Source of the DNA: a virus
Strand: one strand, 5' to 3'
Virus genome (UHGV): UHGV-0239688
DNA length: 10,436 bases
Positions 1,396 through 9,546 of the stretch are shown in pieces. Made by a program: the position numbers and the translations under genes. Below the pieces are notes generated by a model. It saw only the letters and a list, made by a program, of their open reading frames with translations, did no database searches and was not told the origin of the DNA. Position 1 is the stretch's first letter. Each line of letters starts with the position of its first letter.

Positions 1396-1595
1396 TTTGA
1401 ATGCTCTATAATTAATTTTAAGGCTTCTTCACGCACCAACTTGCCTAATGGTATATGCCCAGTTTTAATTGTGTAAGCTTTGTGGAGCTGATTAGATAAG
1501 AGCTCGTATGTGAGCTCTTTGTCATAATTTTTAAATAGCTGGTCAATACGTTTCTTGCGGGCTTTCTTAAGCTGGCGTTTATTTAAACGAACCAT
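1392..1595 (-). CDS. Hypothetical basic protein, 67 aa (position of T4 soc.2-like ORF)
   Basis: ATG (1595..1593) overlaps the stop of the dCTPase gene (TAATG); Lys/Arg-rich N-terminus MVRLNKRQLKKARKKRIDQLF. Confidence 0.55.
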   Translation of the reverse strand: MVRLNKRQLKKARKKRIDQLFKNYDKELTYELLSNQLHKAYTIKTGHIPLGKLVREEALKLIIEHSK

Positions 1596-2113
1596 TAATA
1601 GCCTCTGTCTTGACGAGCGAAGTTTTCAGCATTTTTCAGATAATAAAGTTTAAAGATTTCCTCAGCTGACATTCCAAGAGCAATGAATTTATTCATGAAA
1701 AAGTGAAATTGATCAATCAGTTCAAATTTAATTTCAAGCTGATCTTCAGGAGATAAGTCTTGAATTTTCTTGGATTGCATTTCAGAATAACGTTTCTTCC
1801 AAGGTTTCCATACAGCAGAAGCTTCTTTTTCACCATTACTCATACCACCAAGAGAAGTATATAGCTCGCGGGTTTCGTCTGCGATATAATCGTCTTGGTT
1901 TCGCAACCAAGCAAGAACTTCTCCTGCGGTTTCAAGTGAATCAGGATGACGATTTGTTTCTGGTTTATCATTAGCCAAACGAATCTGTAAAGACCGCTGC
2001 ATATCAAGCATAACCTGCAATGGGTCAATATTGTGCATAATATTCTCAGCATATGCACGAGTTGCTTTATCAACACCTTCGATCAAATGGGCGCATTCAT
2101 TAAAGTGAGCCAT
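1595..2113 (-). CDS. 56: Probable dCTP pyrophosphatase (T4 gp56-like, MazG/dimeric-dUTPase-like), 172 aa
   Basis: Start placed at ATG 2113..2111 (MAHFNECAHLIEGVDKA...) with an AAAGGA RBS; the longer track ORF (to 2206) would run through the promoter. Size and position next to the soc cluster match T4 gene 56; identity is from synteny and remembered sequence, not a search. Confidence 0.6.
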   Translation of the reverse strand: MAHFNECAHLIEGVDKATRAYAENIMHNIDPLQVMLDMQRSLQIRLANDKPETNRHPDSLETAGEVLAWLRNQDDYIADETRELYTSLGGMSNGEKEASAVWKPWKKRYSEMQSKKIQDLSPEDQLEIKFELIDQFHFFMNKFIALGMSAEEIFKLYYLKNAENFARQDRGY

Positions 2114-2147
2114 TATTTTTCCTTTCAATTCATGGATTAATAGATTA

Positions 2148-2172
2148 ATTATACAATAAATATATAAAGCAA
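2148..2172 (-). promoter_or_regulatory. MotA-dependent middle promoter upstream of gene 56
   Basis: Minus-strand reading tTGCTTTAtatatttattgTATAAT: MotA-box-like TTGCTTTA (2172..2165), 11-nt spacer, -10 TATAAT (2153..2148). Confidence 0.5.
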
Positions 2173-2184
2173 TAAGGAGGACAT

Positions 2185-2385
2185 ATGGTACAAAAATTAA
2201 TGGCACTTGTTAATGCCATCAAAGGTAATAAAAAGCGTATAGCTTTTACTATTTCTGCTATGGTAGGAATTTTACTCTGGAACTTTATTTTATCACCTGT
2301 TGCAATTGCGCATGGTATTAATATTCCAGTAGTTACTCTTGATACATTCGTAGATTTAGCATTCGCTTTAGTTGGGTTAATTTAA
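2185..2385 (+). CDS. Hypothetical small hydrophobic (probable membrane) protein, 66 aa, on the opposite strand
   Basis: ORF-track ORF with a strong SD AAGGAGG (2173..2180) 4 nt before the ATG; product is dominated by hydrophobic residues (two likely TM segments); convergent with gene 61, stops overlapping by a few nt. No minus-strand ORF of any length fills this gap. Confidence 0.35.
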   Translation: MVQKLMALVNAIKGNKKRIAFTISAMVGILLWNFILSPVAIAHGINIPVVTLDTFVDLAFALVGLI

Positions 2386-3410
2386 ATCTTAGCATATTTA
2401 GATAACCGCATTTTAGCCATCAACCCCTGGGCAATATTATTTTTCATATATTCCATAATTTGTTCAGTGGTTGCACCTTCCTTTCTAATCATATCATTAA
2501 CATCTTTTGATTTCCAGGGAGATTTATCCCAAAACATAACCCTTTCTCCTGCATCAACTAATTTAGTCATTCGCTTAATAGTGTCAGGATGACGAGGTTC
2601 ATTATCTAAAACCCACACGCGTCTATCTTTAAATGGAACAATTTCTAGGTCTAATTGACCACCCGTAATAGCTATACCATTTTCAATAAAAAGTGAATCT
2701 ATAGGTCCTTCTAGAACATATACATCACCATCTTTAACTCGTTCGACTCCATAGATTTTTGTTGCCTCAGGATAAGCTTTGATGGTGATATATTTTTGAG
2801 GAGCATCTTTCTTTAATGCACGTCCTTGAAAAGACTCAGCTTTTCCATTAGCATTATAAATTGGAATAACAAGACGAGGCTCAGAAATTTCCTTTTTGTA
2901 TGTTCCCGGTGCTATACTATTAACTAATTTAGGCCATTCAGTTGTAAACCAAAGATATTTCCATTTATCCTTTGGAATACAACGAGCTTTTACGTATTTT
3001 ATAATTGGATGGTCTTCCGCCAGTTTATCTAATCTAACACATGACGGAAGAGATTTAATTATTTTCTTCTCAGGTTGTTTAGGAAGTTCTTTAGGTTTTT
3101 CTACTGGACGACTTTTACCTTTTTCTTTTCTTATTTCAAAGATATACTCACGATATAAATCAGGTTCAAACTCCTTTAAATATATTCCGATTGGTGCATG
3201 ATAGTTACAGTTATAACAATGAATATTTCCTTCATTATTATCACCATAATACCATCCACGAGCTTTATTCTGGTCGGTTTTTGAATCTCCACAAACAGGG
3301 CATCTAAACCGTAATTTAAAAGTTGAACTATTATTTACTTGTGTGAATTTAGGTAAATGAGCTAATGCACGGTATGCAAACTCATTATCAATCCAAGGTA
3401 TTGATGACAT
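2382..3410 (-). CDS. 61: DNA primase (T4 gp61-type), 342 aa
   Basis: N-terminal zinc ribbon (CPVCGDS...CYNC), TOPRIM-like motifs (VYVLEGPIDSLF, WVLDNEPRHPD); length equals T4 gp61; synteny next to gene 41. Confidence 0.9.
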   Translation of the reverse strand: MSSIPWIDNEFAYRALAHLPKFTQVNNSSTFKLRFRCPVCGDSKTDQNKARGWYYGDNNEGNIHCYNCNYHAPIGIYLKEFEPDLYREYIFEIRKEKGKSRPVEKPKELPKQPEKKIIKSLPSCVRLDKLAEDHPIIKYVKARCIPKDKWKYLWFTTEWPKLVNSIAPGTYKKEISEPRLVIPIYNANGKAESFQGRALKKDAPQKYITIKAYPEATKIYGVERVKDGDVYVLEGPIDSLFIENGIAITGGQLDLEIVPFKDRRVWVLDNEPRHPDTIKRMTKLVDAGERVMFWDKSPWKSKDVNDMIRKEGATTEQIMEYMKNNIAQGLMAKMRLSKYAKI

Positions 3411-3412
3411 TT

Positions 3413-3577
3413 TTACTCTTCTTTTTCTTTAGATTCCTCTTTTTTCTTTTTAGGAATCTGTTCAGGACCTTTATTTACTACAGCGCCTGATGTTGTTCCA
3501 GTAGAGATATTTTCAGGACTACCACCTGAATCTCCAGCGACCATATCTTCTTTGATAAATTCTTTATATGTTTTCAT
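3413..3577 (-). CDS. Small hypothetical protein, 54 aa (position of T4 61.1)
   Basis: Below the ORF-track cutoff; hand-translated ATG at 3577..3575 with GAGG RBS; product MKTYKEFIKEDMVAGDSGGSPENISTGTTSGAVVNKGPEQIPKKKKEESKEKEE; stop at 3413..3415 abuts the gene 61 start (3410). Confidence 0.45.
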   Translation of the reverse strand: MKTYKEFIKEDMVAGDSGGSPENISTGTTSGAVVNKGPEQIPKKKKEESKEKEE

Positions 3578-3578
3578 A

Positions 3579-3935
3579 TTAACCTCTATTCATAAAAGCA
3601 TTAAAAATTTGGTCATCAATAGATAGTGCAGTAATATTTTCTGCATCATTTAGCAAATCATTAATTTCATCAGATAGCATAACACATGTACCTTTATTTC
3701 CTGTAATTGTTACTGCACAATTACGAACGTTTTCTTTATTAAATTTTAGGTTAATATTTTCGTAATGAAAATCCTTTAATGCTGAATATATTTTTAAAAT
3801 AAAATTGTCTTTTACTGCAATAAACCCAACCTCACTATTAAAACGTGGTTCATGAAAACTGTAATAAACCTTTTCATCTATAAAATCGTATGAAATTTTT
3901 TCCATTTTTAAATATGAAAATTCAGAACTATGCAT
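3579..3935 (-). CDS. Hypothetical protein, 118 aa (position of T4 61.2)
   Basis: ORF-track ORF; ATG 3935..3933 with GAGG RBS, 12 nt after the sp stop. Confidence 0.6.
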   Translation of the reverse strand: MHSSEFSYLKMEKISYDFIDEKVYYSFHEPRFNSEVGFIAVKDNFILKIYSALKDFHYENINLKFNKENVRNCAVTITGNKGTCVMLSDEINDLLNDAENITALSIDDQIFNAFMNRG

Positions 3936-3947
3936 ACTAACCTCTAA

Positions 3948-4241
3948 TTACTCACCTACCACTTCAGCGATGATATTTTTGTTATTAAAGTTTTTATCGC
4001 AATACAGAACATAATTATACTGCATTACACCACCAGACTTAAGCTGTTTTTGCACTTCAGCTTTCATTTCAGGACGATCGCGCTCAACGATATTCATAAT
4101 ATCTGCTTCAATTTGGGTTTCAACCTCAGTCTGATCCGCAGTCATAGACCATTCGCACAAATCTTTATCATAACCTGCCATAGCAGGCTGAGCAGCACAA
4201 GAAGCTAAAGCAAAAATTGTGGCAAAGATAAATTTTTTCAT
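3948..4241 (-). CDS. sp: Spackle (Sp) periplasmic superinfection-exclusion protein, 97 aa
   Basis: N-terminal signal peptide MKKFIFATIFALASCAAQPAMA; sequence and length match my recollection of T4 Sp (gene 61.3); position between 61 and dmd. Confidence 0.75.
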   Translation of the reverse strand: MKKFIFATIFALASCAAQPAMAGYDKDLCEWSMTADQTEVETQIEADIMNIVERDRPEMKAEVQKQLKSGGVMQYNYVLYCDKNFNNKNIIAEVVGE

Positions 4242-4269
4242 GATAATCTCCTCAGTAGTTTATGTTTAT

Positions 4270-4298
4270 ATAGTATCTCAATTTCCAACAAAAGTAAA
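4270..4298 (-). promoter_or_regulatory. Candidate early promoter upstream of sp (TTTACT, 17 bp, TACTAT)
   Basis: Minus-strand reading tgTTTACTtttgttggaaattgagaTACTATataaac: -35 at 4298..4293, -10 at 4275..4270. Confidence 0.4.
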
Positions 4299-4301
4299 CA
4301 G

Positions 4302-4559
4302 CTATTTTAAAACTTTTGCATAATCACATGTTACAAACTGTTTCTCTAGCTTGACGATTTTACGAAAGTATCTTTTGCATTGGCGAATCTGCCGCTTCGT
4401 AGGGCGAACAGCAAACTTAATAAATTTCACTCGACCAAATGGAGGACTTTCTTCTGCTGGAATATCTAGCACCAATTCCCACGTATCTGCAATAAGTGCT
4501 TTGAATTGCGTATTTTTCCTGACGTTATACGGAGTAGGTTTAAATAAAACAATATGCAT
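4302..4559 (-). CDS. Hypothetical basic protein, 85 aa (position of T4 61.4)
   Basis: Start chosen at ATG 4559..4557 (MHIVLFKPTPYN...) with GAGGA RBS, 1 nt after the dmd stop; the track's longer version (to 4601) would overlap dmd by about 40 nt. Lys/Arg-rich C-terminal half. Confidence 0.5.
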   Translation of the reverse strand: MHIVLFKPTPYNVRKNTQFKALIADTWELVLDIPAEESPPFGRVKFIKFAVRPTKRQIRQCKRYFRKIVKLEKQFVTCDYAKVLK

Positions 4560-6238: not shown

Positions 6239-6583
6239 TTAAAAGAATTTAAATTTTTTCTTTGACCTTTTATTAAATGCATCTTGTAGTTGCATTGTAA
6301 TACATTTTTCTACATGAGGAGCTAACTCAGCTTTTCTTTCTTGGTCAAGAACAGCAAAGTCCATTACAACCTTTCCATCAACCCAATCTAATTTTGTCAC
6401 ATACACAATGTGTGTAGAACCATCTTCTAGTTTAATGACAATCTCCTGGATAACATTTTCCATGGCAGATTTAATTATCTTAAGAGACTCATTAAAAAGA
6501 CGTTCTTTTCTTTCTTCTTCCCCCTCCGAAGAGGGGGATTCGTCGATAATTTCTAGATCTAAATCTAAATCATCTTTATTCAT
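6239..6583 (-). CDS. 40: Gene 40-like protein (T4 head vertex assembly chaperone position), about 114 aa
   Basis: ORF between uvsX and 41 as in T4. Start ambiguous: ATG at 6583..6581 (MNKDDLDL...) or the track's GTG at 6601; both overlap the uvsX 3' end. Assignment is by synteny only. Confidence 0.55.
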   Translation of the reverse strand: MNKDDLDLDLEIIDESPSSEGEEERKERLFNESLKIIKSAMENVIQEIVIKLEDGSTHIVYVTKLDWVDGKVVMDFAVLDQERKAELAPHVEKCITMQLQDAFNKRSKKKFKFF

Positions 6584-7757: not shown

Positions 7758-7810
7758 TCATTTTTTCCATAGGCATCATTATATTTTCCTCACTGGTTAA
7801 AGATAGAATA

Positions 7811-7836
7811 ATTATAACACAATAAATTTAGGCATT
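7811..7836 (-). promoter_or_regulatory. Candidate promoter upstream of uvsX (extended -10 TGtTATAAT with degenerate MotA box)
   Basis: Minus-strand reading aaTGCCTAAatttattgTGtTATAAT; -10 at 7816..7811, TG at 7819..7818; the MotA-box-like element has two mismatches to TGCTTtA. Confidence 0.35.
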
Positions 7837-8677
7837 AATCAACTGCTATTGGATGAATAGCATTAAACTTATGAAATGCTTCTGATTTTTCTTTACGCGA
7901 AACACACATGCGAAGAACCTTTAATGGTTCGTCTTCTTCACCCAACGATTTTCGTTTTTCAATATTAGAAGTTTTCCAACGAGCTTGCTCTGGAAACTCT
8001 CTATTGATTTGCTCAAGCGCTCTATTATGTTTAGAATTACTACGAATTGAACTACACCCACCAGGAGCGTGTGATTTTCCAGATACAACTAGATATTTGA
8101 ACAAGGCCAAATGCGGATAACCTTGATTAATTAAATTGAGAAATGCATACATATCTTCGCATAAATCAATTTTTCCATACCCAATTTGTTCTGTGGTAAG
8201 TTTTCCGAGGTCATACCATGTATTCGTGAATCCGTATGAGTTTTCACGATAATTACCCCAAGATGAAGTAATTTTAAAAATTGGTAGACGAGCATGACCG
8301 TGATAATACCCGCAATCCATGGCATCTTCAACGTATTGAATCAATTCATAGAACTGTTCACGAGTCAATTGATTGACTTTATCTACACAACGACGATCAT
8401 CTCTTTTTCGCATTGAACTCATACGAATAGTAGTATCATCGTCAATCATCCAGATTCGTTGACCTGCATACATATCAGTAATTGCTTTACGAGTACCGGC
8501 AATTCCGTTTACATCATCAGGAATAGTTATAATTTTAGCTCTAGACCCATAGGCATCATAATAAGCTTTTTCTTCGTGTTCACGCACTACAATATGAGGT
8601 TCATAATCAGTCGGAAACATATCAAGGGCAGAAACTGCCCCGACACGCTGATAACTTGGAATTACGAATTGAATCAT
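7835..8677 (-). CDS. Putative DNA glycosyltransferase (GT-A-like), 280 aa, at the locus occupied by beta-gt in T4
   Basis: Start ATG 8677..8675 overlaps the gene 42 stop (ATGA); the track's GTG at 8683 is less likely. N-terminal FVIPSYQR strand and IWMIDDDTT (DXD) motif are typical of GT-A enzymes; no resemblance to the 351-aa T4 beta-gt as I remember it. Confidence 0.55.
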   Translation of the reverse strand: MIQFVIPSYQRVGAVSALDMFPTDYEPHIVVREHEEKAYYDAYGSRAKIITIPDDVNGIAGTRKAITDMYAGQRIWMIDDDTTIRMSSMRKRDDRRCVDKVNQLTREQFYELIQYVEDAMDCGYYHGHARLPIFKITSSWGNYRENSYGFTNTWYDLGKLTTEQIGYGKIDLCEDMYAFLNLINQGYPHLALFKYLVVSGKSHAPGGCSSIRSNSKHNRALEQINREFPEQARWKTSNIEKRKSLGEEDEPLKVLRMCVSRKEKSEAFHKFNAIHPIAVD

Positions 8678-9414
8678 TTCCACTCACCTTTATAGTCTTT
8701 TTTCACAATATGAGTTTCGCCAGTATTCCACCAATGATCAACCAAGTAAAAATGACGAGAATATACATGAAGACTTCCAACATTCCATATAATAGAACCT
8801 GCTTTATACTGACGAGTTGAATCGCCTGCATTCAAATCAGATACTAATTTATCTAATACGTATTTTTGCCATGCATAATCATTACGGAATCCGAAGACCA
8901 CGTCATTTGAGCGCATGTTAACTACTGCATTGACTTTCTTATCACGAATCAGGTATTGTACTGTATTAGTACACATGAAATCTGACATACCATCTTTATT
9001 GTAGTCAAATTGCATGGATGGACGAGTATAAATCATGATACCACGTCGAGAATCAGGATTTTGACCAAGTTCAGCTAAACACATATCATACTGGGCATAG
9101 TTATCTTCTGACCAAATAGCCCAACCATAATTCGAGTTAATTTCACCTTTAGAAGATGCTACTTGTTGCCAAATCTTCGGTGTTTCACCCGGAATATCTT
9201 TAACGAACAAGCTTTTAGATTTATACCATTCAAGTTCACGCTGAATGTATTCATCATTAAGAGCGCCAAAAATAAACGGTTCATCTGCTACAAATGATGC
9301 GCCAATAATTTCAATAGTTTTAACGCCAGTTTTATCAACTACGAAATCTTTTTCTTTTAATGCAAGCCCCAAATGAAGACGGATTTCTTCAACTGTCATA
9401 GAGTCACTAATCAT
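8674..9414 (-). CDS. 42: dCMP hydroxymethylase (T4 gp42), 246 aa
   Basis: Length 246 aa; thymidylate-synthase-like features including the catalytic-Cys context DFMCTNT and RSNDVVFGF; sequence agrees with remembered T4 gp42; GAGG RBS. Confidence 0.9.
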   Translation of the reverse strand: MISDSMTVEEIRLHLGLALKEKDFVVDKTGVKTIEIIGASFVADEPFIFGALNDEYIQRELEWYKSKSLFVKDIPGETPKIWQQVASSKGEINSNYGWAIWSEDNYAQYDMCLAELGQNPDSRRGIMIYTRPSMQFDYNKDGMSDFMCTNTVQYLIRDKKVNAVVNMRSNDVVFGFRNDYAWQKYVLDKLVSDLNAGDSTRQYKAGSIIWNVGSLHVYSRHFYLVDHWWNTGETHIVKKDYKGEWK

Positions 9415-9521: not shown

Positions 9522-9546
9522 ATTATAATCATCAAGATTAAAAGCA
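9522..9546 (-). promoter_or_regulatory. MotA-dependent middle promoter upstream of gene 42
   Basis: Minus-strand reading gtgTTGCTTTTAatcttgatgatTATAAT: MotA-box-like TGCTTTTA (9546..9539), 11-nt spacer, -10 TATAAT (9527..9522); lies in the 153-bp imm-42 intergenic region. Confidence 0.5.

Follow-up and report, generated by a model that had tools for sequence, protein, structure and literature searches.

The open reading frame between gene 42 and uvsX in this viral DNA very probably encodes the T2/T6-type beta-glucosyl-HMC-alpha-glucosyltransferase (ba-gt, also designated ggt or TAGT), which adds a second glucose to glucosylated hmC. This assignment is supported by homology, by structure and by the published LC-MS of near-identical phages, all of which point to ba-gt. 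The identity, position, fold class and product of ggt are already known from published work (PMC13216743, PMC13390438).

The window, meaning the whole stretch of 10,436 nucleotides analyzed here, is a replication/recombination segment of a T-even phage (Tequatrovirus). Its genes are read from the minus strand and lie in the order 56, 61, several small ORFs, 41, 40, uvsX, ggt, 42, imm and imm.1. The 280-aa reading frame that the earlier note on this DNA had placed between gene 42 and uvsX is read directly from the sequence:

7835..8677, minus strand: ggt (ba-gt, TAGT) coding sequence, 843 nt, comprising 280 codons and the TAA stop (7835-7837)
8674..9414, minus strand: gene 42, dCMP hydroxymethylase, 246 aa, with a match to Pfam Thymidylat_synt (6e-16), syntenic with gene 42 of T2, T6 and T4

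The ORF downstream of ggt is uvsX, which matches Pfam RecA and T4_UVSX_C and aligns with uvsX of T2, T6 and T4. T2, T6 and slur07 likewise show the order uvsX - ggt - 42 - imm. The ATG of ggt at 8677 is the annotated start in T2, slur07, DalCa and SA21RB, and the mechanical ORF listing begins two codons earlier, at a GTG (8683). The mechanical frame of gene 56 (dCTPase; 1595-2206, minus strand) also extends to a GTG, giving 203 aa. Since the T4-like gene 56 protein starts at an internal MAHFNE..., this mechanical start is probably too far upstream.

Many Tequatrovirus records match the ggt DNA at 98% identity. The ggt protein differs from the annotated T2 ggt (MH751506) at four of 280 residues (276 identical, 99%). 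It is 98% identical to the T6 copy over the aligned part, and identity to other Tequatrovirus copies reaches 99.6%. PHROG 842, 'beta-glucosyl-HMC-alpha-glucosyltransferase', was matched at 3.4e-88 over residues 1-275. The Pfam family PF20691 (TAGT, for TET-associated glycosyltransferase) was matched over residues 3-207, corresponding to positions 2-205 of the 205-position profile, with 38.0 bits (E 2.1e-9) against a curated gathering cut-off of 27.5 bits. The suggestion that the enzyme could be the T2/T6-type ba-gt is borne out by these comparisons. We found no evidence contradicting the identification. The gene is present at 90% nucleotide identity or more in 475 phage records, with gene 42 adjoining it in all of them, and a homologue was found by tblastn in 689 records. 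Its annotation varies among the 475 records ('beta-glucosyl-HMC-alpha-glucosyltransferase', 'glucosyl transferase' or 'hypothetical'), and many are labeled ba-gt. NCBIfam holds no model for the protein, and a PDB sequence search for a relative of solved structure gave chance matches only (E >1). The original cloning of ba-gt is said to be that of Winkler and Rüger in 1993.

The motifs FVIPSYQR and IWMIDDDT, which the first reading of this DNA had taken as hallmarks of a GT-A enzyme, are present at residues 4-11 and 75-82, respectively. The relevant sites are as follows:

8645..8668, minus strand: FVIPSYQR, residues 4-11, predicted first beta-strand of the Rossmann-like nucleotide-sugar-binding half (AF2 strand E2-6, pLDDT >80)
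8435..8443, minus strand: DDD (D79-D81), putative DXD-type metal/UDP-binding motif, codons GACGATGAT, invariant in the family alignment
8153..8161, minus strand: CED (C173-D175), with D175 invariant and E174 nearly so in the family alignment

In the TAGT family alignment, I6, P7, S8, Y9 and R11 of the first motif are invariant, as are D93, D121, N146, D175, G206-G207, S209, R212, E250 and R256. An AlphaFold2 (AF2) model was built from a 10-sequence alignment. Its mean pLDDT was 70.6 and its pTM 0.72; the N-terminal 90 residues had a pLDDT of 82-93, and two loops were poorly predicted. The model is a single Rossmann-like alpha/beta/alpha domain that resembles solved GT-A enzymes and GT-A/GT2-type folds, and no GT-B enzyme was matched. 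With Foldseek against BFVD, a Klebsiella-phage ba-gt was the best match (1.5e-32), followed by TAGT-domain and GT2-like phage proteins. The model thus supports the earlier reading of a GT-A-type fold, and ggt is predicted to be a GT-A-fold, GT2-like transferase. In the model, D79 ends strand 74-79 and D80-D81 come next, so that DDD appears as a DXD motif at the end of a core beta-strand, where it may bind metal. E174 and D175 are candidates for the acidic 'ED' motif that serves as the catalytic base in inverting GT2-type enzymes. Given its GT2-like GT-A fold, the enzyme is probably inverting. A divergent b-gt was also considered for this ORF and was rejected, as BLASTP against T4 b-gt gave a best E of 2.2.

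The earlier note had proposed that this gene replaces T4 beta-gt. The proposal holds for this phage, but the two genes are not mutually exclusive: CC31 and Serratia phage SP1 carry both. TAGT occupies a position syntenic with T4 b-gt (PMC13390438), and in the majority of T-even-like phages TAGT is accompanied by either a-gt or b-gt (PMC13216743). T4 is the oddity, and the window has the common configuration. In CC31 (2495-4404 of the locus) and SP1 (2492-4440), TAGT and b-gt stand in tandem in the interval from gene 42 to uvsX, and the disaccharide chemistry that this implies for these phages is a different one, based on beta-glucosyl-hmC. SP1 has in addition a 308-aa ORF between gene 42 and TAGT. 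The C-terminus of gp42 also differs between the two arrangements, ending in ...DYVGKYA* in T4 (6456-6500 of the T4 locus) and in ...DYKGEWK* in the ggt type (window 8674-8700). The switch from a b-gt-type to a ggt-type cassette therefore falls within roughly the final five codons of gene 42.

The start of ggt overlaps the stop of gene 42, as had been claimed, and the overlap reads ATGA at 8674-8677. Three features bear on the expression of the two genes:

8674..8677, minus strand: ATGA, ggt start over gene 42 stop (TCAT on the plus strand); ATG at 8677-8675 and TGA at 8676-8674, with two bases in common
8683..8688, minus strand: GGTGAG, a Shine-Dalgarno (SD)-like sequence 5 nt upstream of the ggt ATG, within the last gene 42 codons, with a putative function in ggt initiation
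9522..9546, minus strand: T4 middle-promoter-like site upstream of gene 42, a pattern match consisting of a MotA-box TGCTTT followed by TATAAT

GGTGAG is complementary to the 3' end of 16S rRNA. T2, T6, slur07, CC31 (Karamvirus), Mineola (Jiaodavirus) and almost all IMG/VR loci share the ATGA overlap and the AAAGGTGAGTGGAA that precedes it. Overlap and GGTGAG are thus kept in Tequatrovirus, Karamvirus and Jiaodavirus, as is the lack of a promoter motif between the two genes, with the confounder that the junction also encodes the gp42 C-terminus (KGEWK*). Pattern scans of the stretch from the gene 42 start to the ggt start yielded neither a MotA box nor a late-promoter motif. A simple sigma-70 scan gave 13 promoter-like sites versus 11.3 in shuffled sequence, which says nothing for or against an internal promoter. 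The MotA-type pattern was matched three times in the window versus 4.1 times expected by chance, so that a match alone is weak; phage SA21RB carries a middle-promoter annotation at the counterpart of the 9522..9546 site. Transcription of 42-ggt would begin upstream of gene 42 at a middle promoter, likely this one, and ribosomes would initiate at the overlapping ggt ATG by means of the SD inside gene 42. Co-transcription of the two genes, with translational coupling or SD-driven initiation of ggt, is plausible from the arrangement of the sequence.

Some Tequatroviruses carry a seg-like ORF between gene 42 and ggt (DalCa 563-1204; another locus at about 1300-2003). By eye its N-terminus is GIY-YIG-like, and a weak NUMOD3 match falls short of the Pfam cut-off. 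Here too the stop and the ggt ATG share an ATGA, which indicates that the 42/ggt junction is a place where a mobile endonuclease gene inserts. On the other side of ggt, the ggt-uvsX spacer (7758-7834, minus strand) contains an extended -10-like TGTTATAAT at 7811-7819 and a strong SD (GAGGAAAA) for an ATGATG that lies out of frame, 22 nt ahead of the uvsX ATG. At the corresponding place in CC31 and Mineola there is an upstream ORF of six codons (METYGK*/METYGI*), so a conserved uvsX leader ORF is possible.

A terminator-like scan located a further element shortly after the ggt start:

8625..8641, minus strand: hairpin GGGGCAG-TTT-CTGCCCT in ggt codons 13-18, at +37 to +53 from the ATG and about 35 nt past the gene 42 stop

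Its folding energy is -11.8 kcal/mol. Synonymous sites were compared among 21 distinct TAGT genes with about 35% amino-acid divergence. Of 70 conserved-residue columns with four- to six-fold degenerate codons, seven had an invariant codon, and three of these seven form the hairpin stem (G13 GGG, A14 GCA and A17 GCC, in three genera); in the loop, codon V15 is either GTT or GTA. The hypergeometric chance of this placement in the stem is about 6e-4, a post hoc value obtained with phylogenetically related sequences. In the SP1-type genes (47% identity), another hairpin with a perfect 7-bp stem, GGCCAGA-TAATGT-TCTGGCC, has its centre about 3-4 nt from this one. In the other loci compared, a hairpin lies within +35 to +55 of the TAGT gene. 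The hairpin is annotated as a rho-independent terminator in the DalCa record; its U-tract is poor, especially in CC31 and Mineola. We consider it possible, though rather unlikely, that the hairpin is a conserved cis-acting RNA element, working as a partial terminator or 3'-end stabilizer for gene 42 mRNA or as a translational brake. If so, it would uncouple the amount of the second-sugar transferase from that of the hydroxymethylase and help to set the level of gentiobiosylation. The hairpin is the sole feature here that might repay experiment.

These observations bear on whether ggt is truly coupled to gene 42. The alternative is that ggt initiates independently at its own SD and that its level is set separately, for instance by the hairpin acting as a partial terminator or as a processing or stability site for gene 42 mRNA. 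This is a serious possibility that falls somewhat short of probable. The 5-nt spacing of GGTGAG allows de novo loading of ribosomes, and in SP1-type phages the TAGT gene has its own RBS and no overlap with gene 42; however, three genera retain the 4-nt ATGA overlap, even where a seg-like ORF has been inserted. A stable hairpin with conserved synonymous sites 37 nt into ggt, called a terminator in one record, would fit separate control, whereas the lack of a proper U-tract in CC31 and Mineola counts against this alternative. Coupling and independent initiation are not mutually exclusive.

For the ba-gt reading, the following pathway is proposed. The gene 42 product would make 5-hydroxymethyl-dCMP, which would be phosphorylated and then incorporated in place of dC. 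An alpha-glucosyltransferase, encoded outside the window, would attach glucose in alpha linkage to hmC in the DNA. With UDP-glucose as donor, the ggt protein would then add a second glucose, beta-1,6-linked to the first, giving alpha-gentiobiosyl-hmC. In this reaction UDP and the divalent metal would be held by the invariant DDD (79-81), and an acidic residue, with E174/D175 as candidates, would act as the base. The beta-1,6 transfer of glucose onto alpha-glucosyl-hmC is thus proposed here as the activity of the predicted enzyme. Neither a-gt nor b-gt was found in the 10.4-kb window by tblastn with T4 b-gt and slur07 a-gt, and an a-gt within the window was rejected on this search. With a-gt lying outside, the step that produces the acceptor is known from relatives alone. 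Phage slur07 matches the entire window at 97.3% identity; it has an annotated a-gt about 12 kb beyond gene 42, and no b-gt lies between its gene 42 and uvsX.

The chemistry of the relatives has been reported. T2 and T6 combine a-gt with ba-gt, and a second glucose on alpha-glucosyl-hmC yields gentiobiosyl-hmC, at about 5% in T2 versus about 72% in T6 (PMC6024577, PMC13216743). As these two enzymes are nearly identical, the extent of gentiobiosylation is not predictable. Two 2026 papers described a TAGT of GT-A fold at the place of T4 b-gt and alpha-gentiobiosyl-hmC in phages EH2, Some and BGP (PMC13216743, PMC13390438). By LC-MS, EH2 and Some contained about one-third hmC and two-thirds alpha-gentiobiosyl-hmC, BGP contained hmC, alpha-glucosyl-hmC and gentiobiosyl-hmC at about 1:2:2, and beta-glucosyl-hmC was absent from all three (PMC13390438). 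Over the full length, the window is 96.5% identical to EH2 and 96.7% to BGP, and the ggt protein of Some is 98.6% identical. The presence of ggt therefore probably indicates hypermodification with alpha-glucosyl- and alpha-gentiobiosyl-hmC and without beta-glucosyl-hmC, which is useful for annotation and for the choice of phages.

It is very improbable that the window enzyme is a TAGT-family transferase of another activity, that is, one using another sugar or another linkage or acting directly on hmC. The family is broad, with distant TAGTs in phages that lack a-gt or b-gt (PMC13216743), and the homologue in CC31 and SP1 lies beside b-gt rather than having an a-gt partner, so the acceptor can differ within the family; the window protein, however, shares 99% of its residues with T2 ggt and as many as 99.6% with other Tequatrovirus copies, and relatives with ggt make alpha-gentiobiosyl-hmC by LC-MS (PMC13390438). 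The window has S202-H203 where T2 and T6 have A-Q, but both fall within a loop modeled at low confidence (196-211), and neither position is invariant. That the ORF is a decaying or non-functional remnant is extremely improbable: lesions in ggt of two sequenced T6 stocks suggest that its loss is tolerable in the laboratory, but the window gene is intact, full length and furnished with all the invariant family residues, and it is conserved in hundreds of phages.

As to the T6 stocks themselves, T6 is the classical high-gentiobiose phage. In record MH550421 (3951-3953 of the locus), TAG replaces CAG at ggt codon 10, and the protein is annotated from Met20. In AP018814, one GAT of GATGATGAT is lost, which changes DDD to DD and leaves 279 aa. 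These lesions could be laboratory loss-of-function variants or sequencing artefacts.

Among known systems, the ba-gt of T2 and T6 is the closest to the window ggt, sharing its 280 aa, its slot between gene 42 and uvsX and the ATGA at which the two genes overlap upstream. The T2 protein differs by R11H, S202A, H203Q and P251S (window to T2), none scored at an invariant family position. With the PF20691 TAGT family at large, the window protein shares the invariant DDD and the GG.S..R motif; it differs in its modest score (38 bits), in belonging to the T-even branch, a divergent subgroup, and in being paired with a thymidylate-synthase-type hydroxymethylase instead of a TET/JBP dioxygenase. The GT2-type GT-A enzymes TarP (6H1J), BcsA (4P00/9FMV) and TarS (5TZE) are only 5-16% identical to ggt, and Pfam Glycos_transf_2 found no match in it. 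These enzymes act on lipid, polysaccharide or teichoic acid, whereas the acceptor of ggt would be a sugar on DNA. T4 b-gt shares with ggt the slot 42 - X - uvsX, the UDP-glucose donor and a beta linkage on T-even DNA. However, ggt showed neither sequence nor fold similarity to the T4 beta-gt (GT-B) family. The T4 enzyme in the corresponding slot is a GT-B protein of 351 aa (1056 nt), the length that had been given for it earlier, in contrast to the 280-aa GT-A ggt. In T4, 23 nt separate gene 42 from b-gt and the ATGA overlap is absent, whereas ggt overlaps gene 42. Finally, T4 b-gt acts on hmC itself, and ggt would act on alpha-glucosyl-hmC.
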